A DNA stretch of 64,000 bases from Candidatus Thorarchaeota archaeon (GCA_963726195.1 CAVSBO010000003.1:704001-768000); one strand, 5' to 3'; shown: positions 3,550 to 44,527, counted from the stretch's first letter. Numbers and translations: made by a program. Notes: generated from the letters alone by a model not told the origin.

Positions 3550-5284
3550 TTACTTGTGAGCAAATGCAGCCCTTATTGAGGGACTGACCTCATATATCCG
3601 GGTGAATCCGACACGTTCGAACTGAACGAACGTGCCAGCAGCTACCCCGGCAACCGAGGGTTCTGCAAGACCCGTGGTTTTGCTGCCATCCGTCCATGTC
3701 ATTTCTACACTGATACAGCCTTCCTTTGGTACCCAGTGAATGATAGGAGCATTCACCTCTCTTGCCTTCTCCACCTCACGACTCTGGTAGGTCGCTCCGG
3801 AGGCCGTACCTTTCTTCATCGTGAAATTGGCGAAGTCCTTCATCCGGAAAAGCTGGCCGTCTTCGAGCCGCTGATAGTCAGCCTCATCTATACCAATAGT
3901 AAGCTTGGTACCCTTGCGGCCCAGCGGAATGTGCCTGCTTCCGCGTTCGGGAAAGTCTGGGTGAATAGGTGCATCCGCCTCTCGAATCTCAGCAGGAACA
4001 CGAGTCAGAGCCAACCAGACTGGCTTGTCCACGTAGAATAGCCTGGGGGCATCAGCATCCTTCAGCTTTCTGTTCTCCGAATATACTGCCTTCATTGATA
4101 TTGATATGTCAACCATGCTCAAGCCGAGGTCGAGCATTACTTTTCGAAGAGCCTGCGGTTCGATTCCGCGTTTCGCAAGCGATTGCATACTCCAAGTCCG
4201 AGGATCGTCCCAACCAGTGTAGGCACCCGATTTCACTTCTTTCCTAGACTTGCTCTTGCTCAGCGTCGCATCTTCGAATCTCAGCTTGCCGTAGTAGAGC
4301 AGCTCTGGATGTTTCCATCCATAAATGTTCCAGACGAACTCCTCGATTCGTCCTTCCTTGACGAGATCCTTTCCTCTTATTATGTGAGAGATGCCTAGCT
4401 CGTGATCGTCGATTCCCCACGAGAACTCCAAGAGCGGCCAGACTCTGTATCTAGTGCCGACCCTTGGGTGTGGCGCCTCGGATATCCTGAGAATCACATG
4501 GTCTCTGAGCGCGGGGTCGGGCATGTCCATGCCTGTCTTTAGTCGAACCGCGGCGGCCTTCTCTGTGAAGGAACCATCCAGCATCTTCTCCCATCGGGAG
4601 ATATTCTCCTCCGGGTCAAGGTCGCGACATGGACACGCCTTTCCCTTAACTTTGTTCTGCTTGCGCCAGACATCAGCATCGCAAGTGCAGACATATGCAT
4701 GCGAGTTGTTGATGAGGTCAACTGCGTACCTGTAGAATCAGCTCCAATCTGTCGGACTTGTATATCGTGTCCTGATAGGAGACGTCAAGGTATTCGAGAC
4801 CCTCTCGTATGAGATCATAGGCGTCGGGCTCAAGCACCTTCTCTTCAGATCCGATAGTGTCATCGTAAACGAGAATTAGCTTGCCTTTGTACCGTTGAAC
4901 ATAGTAATCATTTAGGATGACCATTCGCGAATTCCCAATGTGGAGCGGACCCGAGGGAAAAGGGGCCATTCGCATGACCACGTTTGGCCAACTGTCAAGA
5001 TTCCGGAGATCGGGAAGTCCCTTCTGACCTTCCTTGGTTTCCGCTACCTGGCCAACCATCTCGGGAGCGATTTCTGCCAACATGGCTTGCTGTTGTCCAA
5101 GAGAAAGCTGCGCAACCTCGGTTACCGTCCTCTCCACGATGGCCTTCACTTCGGGGGCCCTTGATCGCAAGTCTGCACGAGCACCAAGTAGGGCACTCAT
5201 TACCGACTTCGCATTGGGGGTTCCATTGTACTTGATAGCATTGTCAAGCACAAACTTGCGGATCTCAAGATATAACTCACTCAA
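3550..5284 (-). CDS. gltX: Glutamyl-tRNA synthetase, archaeal type; one frameshift near 4730
   Basis: RMAPFPSGPLHIGN (HIGH), LSKS (KMSKS-like), GWDDPR and QFERVGF. Removing one G near 4730 joins the two ORFs through AYVCTC...CPCR. Confidence 0.95.
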
Positions 5285-5427
5285 CGAATAGTAACCCGGA
5301 CACGAGTCCCCGAGCCAGTCATTTAACTTCCTTGTTCAATTCAAAGGTCGGTTTGAGCTTAGAGATAGCTTTTTTTGTGCGAAGGAAGTATCGTATTGGT
5401 AAACACACTTCTACCGGATGTGGAAAT

Positions 5428-5781
5428 TTGACTCAGGAACTCAAATGCTGCCGGAAATGTGGTGGCTACTACTCCTGCACACACAAGGGCGAGTGCTGTC
5501 CAGAGTGCGAATACCTTGATCCGGACGACGAAATCTGCCTTGCTGTGCAGAAGCCAAGAAAAGCGAAGAAGGAGCGTCCGGCCCAAGAGGAGCCAGATGA
5601 GGAGACCTTTCTCTTCGAGGATGAGGAAGAAGAGGAAGAAGAGGTAGCCAGCCCTGCTGCCAAAGAAGAACCAGAAGAGCCAGAAGAGGAACCCGAAGAA
5701 GAGGAAGAGAAAGAAGAAGACCTGTTTGCAGAAGATGAAGAAGAGGAAGAGCCCGGCGAAGACGACGAAGACTACGCCTAG
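5428..5781 (+). CDS. Small Cys-rich protein with a highly acidic C-terminal tail
   Basis: CCRKC-x4-C-x5-CCPEC-x8-C followed by a Glu/Asp-rich low-complexity tail. Probable TTG start at 5428. Confidence 0.6.
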   Translation: MTQELKCCRKCGGYYSCTHKGECCPECEYLDPDDEICLAVQKPRKAKKERPAQEEPDEETFLFEDEEEEEEEVASPAAKEEPEEPEEEPEEEEEKEEDLFAEDEEEEEPGEDDEDYA

Positions 5782-8142
5782 GATGTGCCTTCTCTTTCCG
5801 AATTCTGTGCTTTTGTCGGGCGCGTTCTGAGGCCCGGGAACCAATATTGAGTACTCTGCGAGTAGCTCTTTTGGACTTTCGCAACTCCGTTGCTGACAAG
5901 TAGTTCGAGAGCGTTTCTCACCCTTTCCTCTGTCCAGCCAAGTCTGACGACGACGTCTTCAGGAGTCAAACGGCCGTCTTTCTCTGCGGCAAGACTGAGA
6001 ATCTTCTGCGGGTCGTCGGTCAGCCCCACAGGAATGAATTTCACAAGCCGCGCACCACCCTCTATTGTAGTCAGTCCCTCAATCAGCCCGTCATGCGATA
6101 AACGTCCTATAATCGAGCTCACTTCATTGATGTCTGTTGTCCAGCCCAGGGCATCCAGTTGGACCAACAGGGCAGACAGCAGCATAATTCCTCCCGACTG
6201 CTTTGATTCTTCTGCAATCTTGAGAATGTTCCTTCTAAGAGCGTCTTCCCGATCGTCTCGCTTCAGGAAATGTTTGACCATTCCTTTCTTCTTCAGTGCT
6301 TCTGAGATCCATAATTCGGGATCATATCCGAGGTCCGCCAGAAGCTCGGCTAGGGAACTACGATAAGCTGGAATGCTCAGGAGCGTTTCGCCCTGTGTCT
6401 CAAATGCGTTCCACAGTCGCGCCCGAATCTGATCGATGCGTTCAGCTCGCTCGATTAGTCGGTCGAGTTCTTTTTCAATCTCCTCTTCGCGCGTCACACG
6501 TGAGAGAATCACCGGAATGGCAGTGTCAGCTCCGGATTGGAGACTGAATTCGATGGACTTGTCTCGGTAGTTTGGAGCTGAAATGCGAGCCCTATGAGAA
6601 CCAGCCCAAAGCCGGACTCTAATGACCCCCTGCCCGCTGCCCTCCACTCTCAGATCATCCATTTCGAAGACTGCATGGCTCACGGGAGCGTCTTGTTCGT
6701 CATGAACTCGAAGGACTATCGTACAATCTGATATCTCACCTGGAATCACTTCAGCGCCGGAAGGAGGAGCCGCGTCCGCAGTGAAAGGCTGTTCTGGCAA
6801 ACCCGACAGGAGTGACTCAATCTGACCAATGGTGGGGGACTTCGTCAGGCCTTCGGCCAGCAACAGCTTTGCTCCGTCCATTATGGAAGTCCTTGTGTTC
6901 TTCAAGACAAGCAGATTGTGTTTCTCTGAGAAGTCGCGGATTGCCTTCTTCAGAGTCACATCCTTGGTAACACGTTCTTGGCACCAGACCGCAAGTTGCG
7001 CCATCTCATCCGACGCAGGAACCAATGAATCCGTGAAATCCTTCCGGCGGCCGAGTTTCTGAACATCCGAAACCAGCACTGAAGGAGGATAGACAATGAT
7101 GTCAAGCCGCCCCTTGGTTGACAGACCGAAGACAACAACAGGAACAAAGAGTCGAACACCATCTTCGGGCAGGTCTGGCGCGATAGACACCTCTATGGCG
7201 TCGATGTTTTTTCTGCAGGCCGATATTAGTTCACGAGCTGCCTCGAGTTCAGACTGGACAGAATTCATCCTTTCACTGAACTCCTTCGTGAGCGTCTCCG
7301 AATCCATGAGCACCTGCTCTCTTCTCTGTAGATCTCTCTCGAGGGCACTTTGGCGAGCTTTGAGCAGTTCTCTCGTTTCAATCTCCTTGGGTCCATGCCT
7401 CTCAGACCGCGGCAACTCCTTAATCTTGGATTCAACTCCCGAGATATCCTGCCGTAGCGCAGATATTCTGAGGTCGAGCCGGCCAAGAGTCTGCGAGTAG
7501 TTGCTTTCTAGAACTCCCAAAATGCTCTGAGTCTTCGTCCTCAGGGCATCAACCAGCCAAGGGAGTTCCTTCTCCGCTCGATGAGTAAGCCCGATCAACT
7601 TCCTCACAGCAGTCTGAGCGGAACTCGAGTCTGACGTGTCAATCGTTGATGGAAATACCATCGAGTAGGCTTCTGCGTGTTCCTTCAGTGGCCATGTGAG
7701 TATGTGTGCCAAGCTTGTTGCTACAGGATTTGATACAACTCCCCTGAGAACGACTTCCTCGGTCCCGGTAATCACGCTTGCGACAGCTCCGACCTCTTCG
7801 ACAGACTGCAAGCAACTGCGAATCTGTTTGGGCACCTTGGATCTTCTCTATTAGTTGGTTCAAGTCAAAGTCCTGCAAAACAGGAGTAGAAACGGAAGTA
7901 AGACCCAACAACTCCATGAAGAAACAGCTGCTGGTGAACCCAGTGGGTATGACGAGGAATTCTAGATACGCCTTCAGGGCAAACTCCAAGTCTCGGCCGC
8001 CTCGGGCCTCAATGGTTCTCAGAATGAGGTCTGCCAGAACGTACTCCTCTGGGACTGGCTTCTGGACAGGAGGGCCACTTACCATCTGAATATTACTCAC
8101 GGCAGTGACCGGGACAATCGTACGTTGATGGTGGTGGTCCAT
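5778..8142 (-). CDS. Multidomain coiled-coil protein with a PEGA/Ig-like domain and a C-terminal EAP30/Vps22-Vps36 (ESCRT-II) winged-helix domain; frameshift near 7800
   Basis: The C-terminus SGGIMLL...LVKFIPVGLTDDPQKILSLAAEKDGRLT...LGWTEERVRNALELLVSNGVA...YWFPGL parallels the SNF8/Vps22 C-terminus. ORFs 7639-8142 and 5778-7835 join with one indel. Confidence 0.8.
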
Positions 8143-8277
8143 TATGGTCCCTTGATTCTAGAATGAGTGGCAATGCTTTTCATTCTTTCTCGATGATGAT
8201 TGGATGGCTAACCACGAACATTCATGAAGCATGTTCTGGGGGCAAGCACGAGCCTAGGCGTGAGGCCATCCGATGAA

Positions 8278-8694
8278 ATGAGAAAGGACAACGAAATCCT
8301 CGACCCGTATTGCAGGTTCTGCGGCAGATACAAGGGAGTCGGCCCCTGCAAGTACCCCGATTGCCCTGGATTCAAAACGTCCAATGAAGAACAGCGTGAA
8401 AGAGTCCCTGTGGAACAAGAGAGGGGTCACGAGGAATCCGCCGGGAAGCCAGAGACATGCTGCATGTGCAACGAACCTAAGTCAGTCCTCTGCAGCGTAT
8501 GCGGTCGTGTCTATTGCAGTCACCATAGTAGTGGACGTTTGGAGGTCACCGTGACTGGTCCTGACCACCACATTGGTACTTGTATCAACTGCGGGCGGCT
8601 CGTGTGTGAACACTGCTGGATTCTCGACAATTTCGGCAGGATTACCTGCATCAAGCATCTGGAAGAACGAAACGTCCACGGTTCGCCTGGCTGA
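8278..8694 (+). CDS. Multi-zinc-finger protein (AN1/B-box-like)
   Basis: CxxC...CxxxxC, CxxC-x7-CxxC-x4-CxxH and CxxC-x4-CxxC-x10-CxxH motifs. Start is uncertain (8224 or 8278). Confidence 0.65.
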   Translation: MRKDNEILDPYCRFCGRYKGVGPCKYPDCPGFKTSNEEQRERVPVEQERGHEESAGKPETCCMCNEPKSVLCSVCGRVYCSHHSSGRLEVTVTGPDHHIGTCINCGRLVCEHCWILDNFGRITCIKHLEERNVHGSPG

Positions 8695-8783
8695 CCTCGT
8701 CAATGCCCTTCGGGCTGGTTGAAGAGAGAACATCGCAGTCAAACATTTATCCTAAAGGTTGCGAGGATATCTCAGTGCAATGC

Positions 8784-9893
8784 ATGCCGCAAGCAGTCTT
8801 TGTTGTCCACCTGGACGACTATTACGGTATTGTCGTCGTCAAGAAGTATCCTCCCTCCTTGTCACTGTACGAAAAGACTCTGAGTTCGATATTCTATGAG
8901 CACGAGAAAGAAGAGAAGGAGAACCTCAGATACAATGAGGTTGACAACCTCCGTGTGATCTCATTCGTTGACAAGTCACATCCCCAGTGGATGGCGTGTT
9001 TCGTTTTGAGCGACGAAGAAAACTTCGAAGGACTAAAGGCCGAGATACCGGGTATGGGACGGCTGATGATCGAGCTCGCCGTTGACAACCCAAAGATCGT
9101 TCGCCTCGAGGAGATACTAAAGAATCATAGCATCTTGGAGGAACCAAACGAGGAGCAGAAATATGCCGAGATGTTCCAAACACCATCATCATCTATGATG
9201 CTCGAGAAGATTGAAAGAGAAGGGGTCGAGAGAGCAGCAAAGCTATCGATCTGGCTCAAGACCCAAGTGCAGAGCGATTCTCTGGACCTGCGTGAATCCA
9301 TCCTGCCCCTTATGGACTCAGGAATCGTGAACGTAGAAGTTGTGGGGAAGGGAATCGAAGTTGTGTTTCTTGTTAAGGACGTGTTTGTGTACAGGGCTCC
9401 GCCCGTCAAAGCCATCATGGCCACGAGGGAATCCATGCCCGAGCTTGCCGCGAAGTATGAAGAACGCGTGGCCAAGTTCTTTGCGCCGCCTGCTCCGAAC
9501 AAAGGCTACAACCCCAGCATACCCAGTGATGACCCCAATTCGCCGCTGGTTGAAGACAGAGAGAAGATTGCCGACATCCTTTCAAAGAAGATAGGGTACA
9601 AGGTCCTGACCGCCCTTCGCGACAAACCCCTTTCAGTCAGACAGATATGTGAGAAGACTCTACTCCAAGAGGAAGTTGTTCAGAACGCATTGTACGGCCT
9701 AGAATCAGATGACGTTGCGACACAAATCGGAGAAGGAATCTGGGCATTGGTGACCAATCCAATCATGGAATCATTTATCCCTGAGTTTGTTCTGCAGCTC
9801 ATAGCAAATAAGCTCTCCAACGATCAGATTAGCCCAGAGATAGCCAGAAGACATCTTGAGATACTTGCCAAGAAGTGGAGTGTCGAGCAATGA
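8784..9893 (+). CDS. Longin/uDENN-like N-terminal domain protein with C-terminal winged-helix domains
   Basis: N-terminal AVFVVHLDDYYGIVVVKKYP resembles the start of uDENN/longin domains. There is an ArsR-like wHTH (VLTALRDKPLSVRQICEKT...VQNALYGLE). The stop overlaps the next ATG (ATGA). Confidence 0.6.
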   Translation: MPQAVFVVHLDDYYGIVVVKKYPPSLSLYEKTLSSIFYEHEKEEKENLRYNEVDNLRVISFVDKSHPQWMACFVLSDEENFEGLKAEIPGMGRLMIELAVDNPKIVRLEEILKNHSILEEPNEEQKYAEMFQTPSSSMMLEKIEREGVERAAKLSIWLKTQVQSDSLDLRESILPLMDSGIVNVEVVGKGIEVVFLVKDVFVYRAPPVKAIMATRESMPELAAKYEERVAKFFAPPAPNKGYNPSIPSDDPNSPLVEDREKIADILSKKIGYKVLTALRDKPLSVRQICEKTLLQEEVVQNALYGLESDDVATQIGEGIWALVTNPIMESFIPEFVLQLIANKLSNDQISPEIARRHLEILAKKWSVEQ

Positions 9894-10747
9894 TTAGAAG
9901 CCTCTACATACTCGGACAACAGAGCAATGTCATATACTCGAAAGAATACGTCAGCAGTGAATCGAGACAGGACATGGTTGAGTTCTTGGTGAATCTGGGT
10001 CATTTTGTCTCAACAGTCAATCTTGAAGGAAAGACAGAGTACATGAGTTTCTCAGCAACAAGGATATTCTACGCTGCTCGGCGCGAGTTCGTATTCATAT
10101 TCGTTGCTGACAAGTCTGATGATTCAACTCAGATAGAGGAGAAGATGAACCAATTAATGGAAACGTTCATGAAGGACTTTCCCGCCATGGCGCAAGCCAG
10201 CCTTCCCCTAGATGGCTTTGACTCGAAGGTCGACGAGATCGCAGTGACAACTGTGAAGGTAGCAATACTCGGATACTCGGGTGTTGGCAAGACCACGGCC
10301 CTGCATTTGCTGAGGGGAGAAACGCTTCCTCTGGTTCACATTCCGACGATGGCTTATGACATAAAGAAGCTTCCAGATGAGGTCCAAAGTGCGAACATAG
10401 TGCTCTGGGACCTCGCCGGTCAGTCTGGGTACGACAAGCTTTGGAGCAAGTATCTCGTGAAAGCCCAGATTGTTATCATCGTAACCGACAGCAGCCTCGA
10501 GAATGTGCTGCGAAGCAAGAAGCTGGTCTCATTAGTCAAACAGGAGGTTCCAGAGGCAAGGGTTATTGGCATTGCGAACAAGCAGGACCTCCCCACAGCT
10601 CTAACACCTGAAAGGGTTAGTCAGATTCTTGGAATTCCTACGTATGAGCTTGTTGCGATAGACATTTCCTACAGAGACCGCTTAATCCAGATTATCCGTA
10701 GGGCCATCCTCGAAGAAAGGGCCGAAGCTAATCCAGCACCCGCGTAG
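9890..10747 (+). CDS. Longin domain fused to an Arf-like small GTPase
   Basis: G1 GYSGVGKT, G2 PT, G3 WDLAGQ and G4 NKQD. The N-terminal ~120 aa (MIRSLYILGQQSNVIYSKEY...FVFIFVADKSD) resembles sigma-adaptin/SRX/sedlin longin domains. Confidence 0.88.
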   Translation: MIRSLYILGQQSNVIYSKEYVSSESRQDMVEFLVNLGHFVSTVNLEGKTEYMSFSATRIFYAARREFVFIFVADKSDDSTQIEEKMNQLMETFMKDFPAMAQASLPLDGFDSKVDEIAVTTVKVAILGYSGVGKTTALHLLRGETLPLVHIPTMAYDIKKLPDEVQSANIVLWDLAGQSGYDKLWSKYLVKAQIVIIVTDSSLENVLRSKKLVSLVKQEVPEARVIGIANKQDLPTALTPERVSQILGIPTYELVAIDISYRDRLIQIIRRAILEERAEANPAPA

Positions 10748-10839
10748 GTTCAAGCACCGACGAAGGTGTTGATGACGACAAAGGTTAAGAACGACGTTCA
10801 TGATTTCCAATAATAGAGGCTGTCCGTAGGTGAGCACAA

Positions 10840-11451
10840 ATGGCCTTTGACTTTAGCGCTATTCAAAAACAAATGGAAGAACTGAACCAGAAGCTTAGGG
10901 CAATTGAAAGTTTTGCCAACAAGGTGGCGGAGACAAAGAGGCTTGCCGACCAACTGGCCGAGAACTTCGCGAAAATGAAGACCGCCATCAATCAGACAAT
11001 CAACGAGAGCTTCAGTCAGATCGCCGACCAAATTGACACTCTGAGACGTAACATGCAGAGCATGGAGACGGTGCAACCCGTCTCTCTCTCCGCAGCAGCT
11101 CCGGCACCTGCACCAAAGGCTGCACCGAAAGCAGCTCCTGCACCAGCCCCCGCACCAACACCTACGCCAAAAGCTGCGCCGGCCCCTGCTGCATCAAAGG
11201 CAGCACCAGCCGCGGCAAAGGCAGCACCAGCCGCACCTAAGTTTTCAGCGACCCCACCCTCTGCTCCTGCGGGTTCAAGCGACCAACTCGACTTCCTCCT
11301 TCAACAGAAGGATCGTCTGAAGGCTTCATTGACTGACCTTCGGTTTGACTATATGAGAGGATACATACCCGAAGAAGACTACAAGGCAAAAGAAACCGAA
11401 CTGGATTCACAGCTTGAAGATCTCGATCGACAAATAGCTGGCATGAAGTAG
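10840..11451 (+). CDS. Coiled-coil protein with an Ala/Pro/Lys linker and a C-terminal SHOCT/CdvA-like helical hairpin
   Basis: N-terminal heptad repeats, an APAPKAAP linker and the LRFDYMRGYIPEEDYKAK motif. GGTGAG RBS upstream. Confidence 0.75.
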   Translation: MAFDFSAIQKQMEELNQKLRAIESFANKVAETKRLADQLAENFAKMKTAINQTINESFSQIADQIDTLRRNMQSMETVQPVSLSAAAPAPAPKAAPKAAPAPAPAPTPTPKAAPAPAASKAAPAAAKAAPAAPKFSATPPSAPAGSSDQLDFLLQQKDRLKASLTDLRFDYMRGYIPEEDYKAKETELDSQLEDLDRQIAGMK

Positions 11452-11606
11452 AACTGTGACAAGGCAAGACGCAATCGGTCTTGCCCCGCAGTATCTTTTT
11501 CTCAGTCAACCAAGTTGAGTTGAAGGTCAAGAATCGCATATTCGCTAAGTCCACGTTGAATTGCCCATTTCGCCAGCAGTATGATCAATTGAGTCTGCAC
11601 GCGACT

Positions 11607-12413
11607 CTACCTTTTCTTGACTGGCTTGCTTGGTTTCTCGGAAGATGCCTTCTTGCGAACTTGAGGCTTCTGCGTGGGCTTGGCTGGTTTCTTGGCGGCG
11701 ACCTCAGGCTTCTTCTTGGGCTTGGCCTTCTCTTTTGGCTTAGCCGCAGGTCGGGCGGCCTTCTCGGGCTTGGGCGGAACCTTCTTGGTCCGAGAGCCCG
11801 TTTCTGCAACTGCCTGCGATACAGCGCTCGGCTTTGGCTGTACTCCCTTGGTCTCCTTCGGAGAGATCGGTCTGGCAAAACCTCGCTCTGGTTCGAGAAC
11901 TCGCTCCGTGCCTTCTTCCCCTTCCAAAGGCTGTACCAGAACCTCTGGTCTCCTGTCTCTCGTTTTCTCTCTCCGTTCTCCGAATTCGCGTCTCTGACGA
12001 GCAATCTTGCCCGGCTTTACTGCCGCCATGCTGGCAGCAGCCGCCAGCGCTGTTTCCATCTCATTCGTCATTAGCGGCTCGTGAGTAACAGAAGAAGCAA
12101 CCTCCTCAAGAGCATCAGCGATTAGAACAGGCCGACCTGTCTGACGCTTCTCGACTTCTGCCGGAGTTGAGTATGCTACGAAACCGCCGTCTCGCACGTA
12201 CGGAACAAGACTGCCCTTCGCCTCTCTTTCTTCCAGTAGGCCCCGAGCAACGCTGAGACGCAGGTTGAACCGATTAGCCACGTCAAAGACCGTTGTCGAT
12301 CTGGCTTTCTTGAGATAGTCATCGACCTCTTGAAGTGTTTCCGGCTTGGGAACTGCTTCGCGAACTAGTCGCTCGGTCTTTGCCGAAGGCTTTCCCCACT
12401 TCTTCTTGCTAAT
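11607..12413 (-). CDS. rps25e: Ribosomal protein eS25 (S25e)-like domain with a long Lys/Pro/Ala-rich C-terminal extension
   Basis: The frame is open upstream of the called GTG: SKKKWGKPSAKTERL...TTVFDVANRFNLRLSVARGLLEEREAKGSLVPYVRDGGFVAYST, which matches the eS25 KKKW motif plus winged helix. Probable ATT start at 12413 or 12419. Confidence 0.75.
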   Translation of the reverse strand: MSKKKWGKPSAKTERLVREAVPKPETLQEVDDYLKKARSTTVFDVANRFNLRLSVARGLLEEREAKGSLVPYVRDGGFVAYSTPAEVEKRQTGRPVLIADALEEVASSVTHEPLMTNEMETALAAAASMAAVKPGKIARQRREFGERREKTRDRRPEVLVQPLEGEEGTERVLEPERGFARPISPKETKGVQPKPSAVSQAVAETGSRTKKVPPKPEKAARPAAKPKEKAKPKKKPEVAAKKPAKPTQKPQVRKKASSEKPSKPVKKR

Positions 12414-43750: not shown

Positions 43751-43866
43751 GTAGAGACCTCTGTTTCTTGAATCCCGTACAATTCCTCTGACCGGGAGCT
43801 GATGTGCAATCGTTTAAATGTGTCAGCTGAGGACCGCAGCTGGTTACCATAGGGACGGTGCACTCA

Positions 43867-44527
43867 ATGGGCTTTCTGAGCGGCAAGAAGAAGGTGGATA
43901 CCGAACGCGGCATCCTTGAGATCAAGGGGACCATGAACGCATTGACCCTCAGGATTCGCAGGCTTGAAACGCGAATGCAAGAGGAGCGCAAGTCCGCGAA
44001 AGAAGCCATGGCAGATGGTGAGAAGGCGCTTGCTAGGTCGCACCTCTCAATCATGTTGGATTTGGACAACCGCAGGGCAAGATACAGACAACAATTCCTG
44101 ACACTTGAGACTGCACTTCTCAACATCGAGGAAGCAAAGGACCAATCAGAAGTCCTCGGAGCGTTCAAGATAGCAAATGATGCGCTCTCCAAAGCACAAA
44201 CCATGGTTAGCCCGGCAGAGATACAGATGCAGCTGAGATCGGCTTAGTCAATCAATCGAACAGATATCCGAGGCCGGCGACCTGCTATCTGAAGACCTCT
44301 CTACCACCGGAACGACTGCCGAAATGGAAAGAAAGATTGATCAGCAGCTGGACGCAATGGAAGCGGAGATTCTGCTGGACAAGGAGAAAGTATTGCCGCC
44401 ACTTGCAAAGCAGAAGCAGAAGGAACCCGGCCGAAAACCAGCGACGGAAGAAAAAAGGATTGACGACCTTCTAGCCGACCTCGAACGAGAGGCTCAACAA
44501 GAGAAAGAGCGAGAGGCAGAGAAGTAA
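43867..44527 (+). CDS. Snf7-family ESCRT-III protein (Vps20/32/60-like); frameshift near 44236
   Basis: MGFLSGKKK N-terminus, helical hairpin AKEAMADGEKALAR...LETALLNIEEAKDQSEVLGAFKIANDAL, acidic C-terminal half with LPPL and terminal IDDLLADLE. Deleting one A joins the two ORFs. Confidence 0.85.

Follow-up and report, generated by a model that had tools for sequence, protein, structure and literature searches.

A longin-GTPase operon with a putative longin-dimer platform beside a lineage-restricted Vps22 paralog in a Thorarchaeota genome

We analyzed a 64,000-nucleotide stretch of DNA from Candidatus Thorarchaeota archaeon (GCA_963726195.1, CAVSBO010000003.1:704001-768000; hereafter the window, G000:C3:704001-768000), which belongs to a 2.9 Mb genome assembled in 19 contigs. 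Our subject is a run of five genes that an initial annotation, made from the sequence alone, had read as a candidate membrane-trafficking locus, in which a minus-strand gene with a Vps22/36 domain of the endosomal sorting complex required for transport II (ESCRT-II) is divergent from four plus-strand genes. Gene calls and domain assignments within the window come from a listing of open reading frames (ORFs) and from Pfam, and distributions were surveyed by profile search in 301 Asgard genomes and, for Thorarchaeota (Thor), in 57 sampled genomes; genomes, contigs, loci and families are numbered with the prefixes G, C, L and f. All five genes were present in the proposed arrangement (Table 1), with a spacer of 81 nt between the divergent Vps22-like and zinc-finger genes. 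The annotated character of each product also held: a Vps22-like C-terminus, a multi-zinc-finger protein, a longin and winged helix-turn-helix protein (hereafter the partner), a longin-Arf-like GTPase translationally coupled to it, and a coiled-coil protein. Three details required correction, namely the start of the partner, the start of the GTPase, and the length of the Vps22-like protein, for which the annotated 685 aa is wrong, as relatives have a single ORF of 766-851 aa.

Table 1. Genes of the five-gene run, with coordinates counted from the first nucleotide of the window.
Feature	Coordinates	Strand	Description or basis
Vps22-like gene, ~790 aa	5778..8142	-	Oversized ESCRT-II Vps22 paralog, frameshift-split in this assembly
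Multi-zinc-finger protein	8224..8694	+	15 Cys, three CxxC-type clusters
Partner: longin plus two acidic winged helices, 369 aa	8784..9893	+	AlphaFold2 (AF2) model
Small GTPase, 285 aa: N-terminal longin-type domain plus Arf-like G domain	9890..10747	+	Pfam, motifs
Coiled-coil protein, 203 aa	10840..11451	+	ORF listing, Pfam, alignment

The start codon of the GTPase gene at 9890 overlaps the TGA stop codon of the partner gene, the two forming an ATGA at 9890-9893. The GTPase scored 73 bits against the Pfam Arf family (cut-off 22.3), which was its best family, and its best sequence matches in the PDB were Arl1 and Arf1 (E 5e-15). Weak matches to Gtr1_RagA, scoring under Arf, were found in 16 of 20 orthologs (best E 6.4e-9). 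The nucleotide-binding motifs G1 to G5 are intact (GVGKTT, T153, WDLAGQ, NKQD and AID) and invariant in the 20 orthologs. The protein ends about 30 residues past the G domain and has no C-terminal roadblock domain, and instead of an Arf-type N-terminal amphipathic helix it begins with a globular domain of about 118 aa. Profiles of two families matched this domain in a minority of the 20 orthologs: Clat_adaptor_s (adaptin-sigma), weakly, in five (best E 0.012), and Fuz_longin_1 in two (best E 3.3e-6). Because fusions of longin domains to GTPases have been published from Asgard archaea, we consider a longin fold likely for this N-terminal domain.

The partner gene probably starts at 8784, since its homologs begin at MP(E/Q)A; an alternative ATG at 8703 would give a protein of 396 aa. 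No Pfam domain matched the partner, and its architecture was read from an AF2 model (predicted local distance difference test score, pLDDT, 90; predicted template-modelling score, pTM, 0.87). In the model, a longin domain (residues 1-117) is followed by one winged helix (134-205) and, after a linker, by another (255-331), and the secondary structure of the N-terminus follows the beta-beta-alpha-beta-beta-beta-alpha(-alpha) order of the longin fold. In a wide VIA structure search, the longin domain matched an Asgard (Loki) longin (8yqg_B; Z 10.3, root-mean-square deviation (rmsd) 3.1, 116 aligned residues), NPRL2 (8fw5_B; Z 10.1) and the uDENN domain of DENND1A (Z 9.3), with Npr-type, sedlin, VAMP7 and adaptin longins also near the top and Z values of 9-10 for NPRL2, DENND1A, Npr-type, sedlin and VAMP7 structures. 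The second winged helix resembled those of ArsR/SmtB type (Z 8.0-8.7), to which there were also weak sequence matches. With Foldseek, the best whole-length matches of the partner were NPRL3 and NPRL2 chains of GATOR1, although these were weak (E 3.5e-3 to 2e-2; template-modelling (TM) score about 0.2), and in the Atlas unnamed Asgard clusters came first (TM 0.58-0.65), with an NPRL2 cluster at TM 0.29. Homologs of the partner were found in 215 of the 301 Asgard genomes, some of which carry six or more copies, and the partner is a member of a large Asgard-specific family. In the model, its order of a longin domain followed by winged helices appears to be a likeness of build to NPRL2 and NPRL3, rather than proof of shared descent.

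This likeness raises the possibility that the partner is a catalytic GTPase-activating protein (GAP) of the GATOR1 or FLCN type that provides an arginine finger to the GTPase. Longin domains of GAPs are marked by a catalytic arginine finger and by a GP motif that precedes beta2 (PMC12290439). The partner longin is as near NPRL2 as it is to any solved longin, its full length weakly matches NPRL2 and NPRL3 as described above, and its beta1-beta2 loop ends in an invariant Gly, G15, at the site of the GP motif. However, the residue that follows G15 in the alignment is Phe or Ile rather than Pro, so that the GP motif is missing, and neither the beta3-beta4 nor the beta4-beta5 loop has a conserved Arg. 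Most Thor copies carry Arg at position 21, where the window copy has Lys and the f12 copies have Val. The partner also gave no match to Pfam NPR2 (PF06218), and the best hit of an NPR2 search within its own genome (E 0.22) lies elsewhere. As neither a GP motif nor a conserved arginine finger is present, we regard the catalytic GAP as improbable. The analogy to uDENN and GAP longins drawn by the initial annotation is therefore weakened: the structural similarity to DENND1A and NPRL2 was recovered, yet the features expected of a GAP longin were not.

The winged helices suggest another role, that of a DNA-binding transcription factor of the ArsR/SmtB type whose longin domain would sense the state of the GTPase. 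The fold of the second winged helix is consistent with this proposal, as are the names given to homologs by JGI and NCBI (ArsR-type or winged-helix regulators). On the other hand, both winged helices are acidic (isoelectric point (pI) 4.7-4.8), their putative recognition helix is rich in Glu, and a longin domain with tandem winged helices behind it is a build that serves protein binding in NPRL2/3 and ESCRT-II. Because of the acidity of both winged helices, we disfavor the ArsR-type label and find a transcription factor unlikely.

The last gene of the run, which follows that of the GTPase, encodes a protein with a coiled coil at its N-terminus, then a linker rich in Pro, Ala and Lys, and at its C-terminus a conserved helix motif, DLRFDYMRGYIPEEDY. 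In families f1, f2, f7 and f19, including all Thor loci, the GTPase gene is likewise followed by a coiled-coil gene. In f7 and f19, which are Jordarchaeia/Freyarchaeota by the names on identical proteins, the gene in this slot encodes only 110-120 aa; hhalign aligned its product with the C-terminal motif of the window protein (probability 85%, E 6e-6).

Conservation of gene order among relatives was a check set by the initial annotation, and within Thorarchaeaceae the order was conserved at every locus read: the order glutamyl-tRNA synthetase (GluRS) - Cys/acidic protein - Vps22-like - (zinc finger) - partner - GTPase - coiled coil - eS25-like - GlmU is colinear, and the partner and GTPase genes adjoin at all 18 loci that span the pair. 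Because the whole GluRS-to-GlmU stretch is colinear in this family, gene order at the family level is unspecific. Adjacency of the pair is kept beyond it, however: the partner gene adjoins a full-length ortholog of the GTPase gene at 6 of 6 loci with ortholog-level copies, in f7, f19 and f12, with the order of the two genes inverted in f12. A paralogous pair is also found, in which a partner paralog lies 1.4-2.8 kb upstream of a second longin-GTPase gene on the same strand, in five Thor genomes. Taken together, the ATGA coupling, the adjacency in three further Asgard families and the paralogous pair support the proposal that the GTPase and the longin partner are a cognate pair.

In the genome of the window the paralogous module lies on contig C7 (41460-45547; locus L112, 3455-8115) and consists of a split partner-family gene, a GNAT acetyltransferase gene on the opposite strand and then a longin-Arf-like GTPase gene. 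This GTPase has 467 aa, with a C-terminal extension of ~190 aa that reaches ~270-330 aa in relatives (545-609 aa in total), and the arrangement is kept in G002, G022, G012 and G009. A third longin-GTPase of 657 aa, encoded on contig C17, has no partner gene nearby.

The switch regions of the window GTPase differ from those of its Thor relatives. At 21 positions conserved in all other Thor orthologs, substitutions are common to the window GTPase and that of L119, a metagenome contig that is the nearest relative, and 14 of these 21 lie in switch I or II (Fisher p 1.7e-7, for switch ranges that follow standard motifs but were fixed after the alignment had been viewed). Residues 151-157 and 180-194 read HIPTMAYD and SGYDKLWSKYLVK in the window and L119, where every other Thor ortholog has HDPTIGVS and SRFSILWAKMIAN. 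These substitutions are real multi-nucleotide codon changes and not a frame artefact. As the variant is common to a second taxon, L119, it looks like a fixed retuning of an interaction surface rather than decay. In the partner, 5 of 16 subclade-specific substitutions fall within residues 16-35 (nominal p 0.003), a range chosen post hoc that makes this result a lead only.

From these data, we favor, by a modest degree, the view that the locus is built around a small-GTPase module of three genes with a longin-dimer platform, and that the neighboring Vps22-like gene is a lineage-restricted paralog. In such a module, the longin domain of the GTPase and that of the partner would pair into a dimer platform of longin/roadblock type, and the tethered G domain would sit on the platform that the partner completes. 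The partner may then tune or read the nucleotide state, as a non-catalytic subunit of NPRL3/FNIP type, an exchange factor or an effector, each more likely than an arginine-finger GAP. The coiled-coil protein would be a candidate effector or localizer.

Several observations count against this model. The profile matches that suggest a longin fold for the GTPase N-terminus are weak, and its domain and the longin domain of the partner have no mutual sequence similarity detectable with hhalign. The same comparison, extended to Vps22-like residues 1-165 and 320-455, partner residues 1-120 and GTPase residues 1-118, detected no similarity among any of them, which is uninformative as longins are very divergent. 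The missing GP motif and the variable position 21 of the partner, described above, also belong here. With respect to gene order, the synteny of the module within Thorarchaeaceae is no greater than that of the GluRS and GlmU flanks, and the f2 ortholog of the GTPase has no partner gene alongside. More distant paralogs of the partner (Loki, Odin and others) are beside a GTPase gene at only 2 of 14 loci.

The product of the divergent minus-strand gene was examined through an intact ortholog with 68% identity (P0122), for which AF2 gave a model with pLDDT 82. Its domains are, in order, an alpha/beta domain (residues 1-160), a coiled-coil hairpin of ~150 aa (169-316), a globular domain (330-450), a transthyretin-like beta-sandwich (473-547) and, at the C-terminus, a long helix with two winged helices. 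The top Foldseek matches were human and yeast VPS22 (3cuq_A; E 2.7e-8, 226 columns, 24% identity), and VIA aligned 147 residues with VPS22 (Z 11.3, rmsd 5.9, 26% identity). The profile of the family matched human SNF8 (E 2.7e-16) and yeast Vps22 (E 7.6e-8), and 57 of 58 family members matched Pfam EAP30 (best E 1.8e-19), the window copy alone falling below the cut-off (22.7 against 26.8 bits). These results demonstrate that the C-terminus of the protein is a true Vps22 homolog. The alpha/beta and 330-450 domains obtained no named fold from VIA or Foldseek, whose lists were filled by matches to the other domains, and a feature search of the Atlas with the N-terminal domains returned only matches below 0.9 to unnamed clusters.

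Stand-alone Vps22-like proteins of ~250 aa, encoded by almost every Asgard genome, are matched by profile positions 540-776 of this family (E 1e-30 to 1e-43). In the genome of the window the canonical cluster of EAP30/Vps22-like, Vps25 and Snf7 genes lies on contig C13 (104690-107976; locus L114), and by genomic location the Vps22-like gene of the window is not part of an ESCRT gene cluster. A Snf7-family (ESCRT-III-like) gene at 43858-44524 (+), ~32 kb from the locus, also lies outside the C13 cluster. Matches to the full-length Vps22-like protein were found only in f1 (most genomes), f2 and f6. Since the full-length form is restricted to these families and the canonical genes are on C13, the Vps22-like protein is a lineage-restricted, domain-accreted paralog of ESCRT-II Vps22.

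In this assembly the Vps22-like gene is split by a 1-base frameshift: the first ~110 codons of 7639-8142 (-) together with 5778-7835 (-) correspond to the one ORF present in all relatives, and the two frames cross within GCAGTCTGTC at 7800-7809. This split, together with the unusual switch regions of the GTPase in the same lineage, could be read as pseudogenization of the Vps22-like gene and real decay of the module. However, 6 of 50 ORFs in the syntenic 75 kb on a contig of G002, a genome of the same genus, map to two frames in the window's genome, and the genes affected include that of the essential GluRS and the Snf7-like gene mentioned above. The GluRS gene at 3550-5284 (-) is broken, at about 4585-4717, into two ORFs (188 and 344 aa) that differ in frame and are separated by 133 nt, a split specific to this assembly, and relatives have one ORF (597 aa in L119). 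The partner paralog on C7 is likewise split in two frames, and in place of the ~250-aa protein that relatives encode, the canonical EAP30 gene on C13 shows two ORFs of 92 aa, perhaps another frameshift of this assembly. Furthermore, L119 carries an intact Vps22-like gene (787 aa) together with the same switch variant, and neither reading frame of the window gene contains a further stop or other sign of decay. Because nearby genes, including that of the essential GluRS, are split in the same way, an assembly error is the most likely source of the frameshift, and we dropped the pseudogene reading, to which we attach a low probability.

We then considered the link to ESCRT. The initial annotation had suggested that a GTPase switch and its longin partner may control an ESCRT-II-bearing scaffold, and a full version of this model would make the zinc-finger protein, partner, GTPase and coiled-coil protein one system with the Vps22-like scaffold, with the switch recruiting or controlling ESCRT-II-like remodeling. 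The divergent arrangement across the short spacer is consistent with this, as is the fact that most Thorarchaeaceae carry the Vps22-like gene beside the operon. In the sister family f2, a rearrangement has placed the divergent zinc-finger/Vps22-like pair on the opposite flank of the GTPase and coiled-coil genes, still within 3.5 kb, and in f6 (G029 and a metagenome-assembled genome (MAG) labelled 'Asgardarchaeia') a full-length homolog is found ~3 kb from the gene for a plain Arf-like GTPase and ~5-5.5 kb from a zinc-ribbon gene. Diverse Asgard ESCRT-domain fusions, some of them with longin domains, are noted in passages of Makarova et al. 2024 (PMC10936438) found by keyword, and a Vps22 fusion of this kind is not described in those passages.

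Against the full model, at least 10 of the 57 sampled Thor genomes have no full-length Vps22-like gene; all 10 keep a match to the partner family (p369), and at the loci read in three of them, G007, G013 and G014, the partner-GTPase-coiled-coil trio is intact. The Vps22-like gene is not beside the operon in f7, f12 or f19, and its synteny is equalled by that of the GluRS and GlmU flanks. With ~20 small-GTPase genes per genome, one would be expected within 6 kb by chance in roughly 8% of cases, about one in ten, and the canonical ESCRT cluster is on another contig. As the Vps22-like gene is lineage-restricted, the trio is intact without it and housekeeping flanks are equally syntenic, coupling of the GTPase module to ESCRT is an unproven hypothesis that rests only on adjacency, and we find the full model doubtful. 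The Vps22-like protein may nonetheless use the GTPase switch. A more specific proposal, that the Arf-like switch, NPRL-like partner and coiled coil recruit or gate the Vps22-like scaffold in a GTPase-controlled, ESCRT-II-like step of membrane or cargo sorting separate from the canonical ubiquitin-ESCRT operon, seems to us somewhat less probable again; if true, control of ESCRT-type machinery by a small GTPase would have a precedent in prokaryotes.

The f6 homologs (769-794 aa) lie in a conserved block at two loci, L120 (G029:C7) and L106 (a contig of GCA_052584985.1). The block also encodes unannotated proteins of 833-840 and 214-229 aa, a 1,140-aa GCS2-like protein, the Arf-like GTPase (221 aa), a P-loop protein and a zinc-ribbon protein. 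A 358-aa neighbor of the f6 homolog was considered as a member of the partner family and rejected, as it is a P-loop protein.

The zinc-finger gene is patchy among relatives. Its product gave a weak match to a B-box (ANCHR-like) zinc finger (PF22586; E 1.7e-4, 22 bits, cut-off 27) and contains the Cys/His pattern CxC-x7-CxxC-x4-C-x-HH. The gene is present at the locus in G001, G002, G003, G007, G008, G013, G022, G025 and L119, and it is not at the loci read in G004, G006, G009, G010, G012, G014 and G017.

Two further genes flank the run. At 5332-5781 (+), convergent with the Vps22-like gene and overlapping its stop codon, is a gene for a small protein whose N-terminus is rich in Cys (9 Cys) and whose Glu/Asp tail is extremely acidic (pI 4.2); the gene is kept at the same place in all Thor loci read that cover the position, except G014. 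Directly downstream of the module, at 11607-12281 (-), is a gene whose product has a weak eS25-like match at its N-terminus and a long basic tail rich in Lys, Pro and Ala. Just past the stop codon of the coiled-coil gene, a hairpin at 11463-11500 (+), GGCAAGAC ... GTCTTGCC, is followed by a T-rich run and, judged from the sequence, may possibly be the end of a transcription unit. A scan for sigma-70 promoters and terminators found nothing above shuffled sequences, with models that are ill-suited to archaea.

Longin domains fused to Rag/Arf-like GTPases have been catalogued in Asgard genomes, as have NPRL2-like longin proteins, the latter in most Thor MAGs (10.1101/2020.10.19.343400; PMC10933270). 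Most such Asgard genes lie outside conserved neighborhoods (Liu et al. 2021, 10.1101/2020.10.19.343400; Tran et al. 2024, PMC10933270), and the GTPase genes of MK-D1 as a rule share no operon with a longin or roadblock gene (10.1101/2020.10.19.343400; PMC10933270). In contrast to these catalogued genes, the pair in the window is translationally coupled, is joined by a coiled-coil gene and is conserved across several classes. We found no description of a partner-GTPase-coiled-coil operon in the searchable literature. The module itself is well supported and would represent a new form of longin-platform GTPase regulation. The remodeled switch I/II in the subclade of the window is newly seen here.

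Asgard genomes encode dozens of small GTPases and longin or roadblock proteins that, according to published work, can rarely be matched to one another by gene order. The operon described here supplies a matched set of a longin-GTPase, a partner of NPRL2/3 shape and a coiled coil, found across several Asgard classes, and so allows direct tests of complex formation, GAP or guanine nucleotide exchange factor (GEF) activity, and membrane binding. Results of such tests would bear on the state of longin platforms before eukaryotes and on whether a GATOR1-like architecture predates Rag/TOR signaling. The neighboring Vps22 paralog offers a specific hypothesis for a route from a GTPase to ESCRT, for which evidence is currently weak.

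Compared with ESCRT-II Vps22 (SNF8/EAP30), the C-terminal ~225 residues of the Vps22-like protein share the N-terminal helix and two winged helices, with 23-26% identity to yeast and human VPS22, whereas the window family has ~550 additional N-terminal residues (the alpha/beta, coiled-coil hairpin, globular and transthyretin-like domains). It also differs from the Asgard Vps22-like proteins of ~250 aa in that it is encoded outside the ESCRT operon and is confined to Thor-type lineages and f6.

Dimer platforms of longin or roadblock domains hold small GTPases in several systems, including GATOR1-Rag, FLCN-FNIP-Rag, Mon1-Ccz1-Rab7, TRAPP-Rab1 and MglB-MglA. The closest comparison in architecture is with the NPRL2-NPRL3 (yeast Npr2-Npr3) subunits of GATOR1 acting on RagA/Gtr1. 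The partner shares their N-terminal longin and winged-helix-type C-terminal domains, and in both cases a longin subunit is encoded with, and presumably acts on, an Arf/Rag-type GTPase, with two domains of established or probable longin fold available to pair. Unlike its GATOR1 counterparts, the partner has no Pfam NPR2 match, its GP motif is reduced to the Gly, no arginine finger is conserved, and there is no DEPDC5; unlike Rag/Gtr proteins, the window GTPase has no C-terminal roadblock domain. With MglA-MglB and Rag-Ragulator the module would share, by analogy only, the principle that a GTPase is seated on a two-fold longin/roadblock dimer, which sets the nucleotide state, with the difference that in the window one presumed half of the dimer is covalently fused to the GTPase itself.

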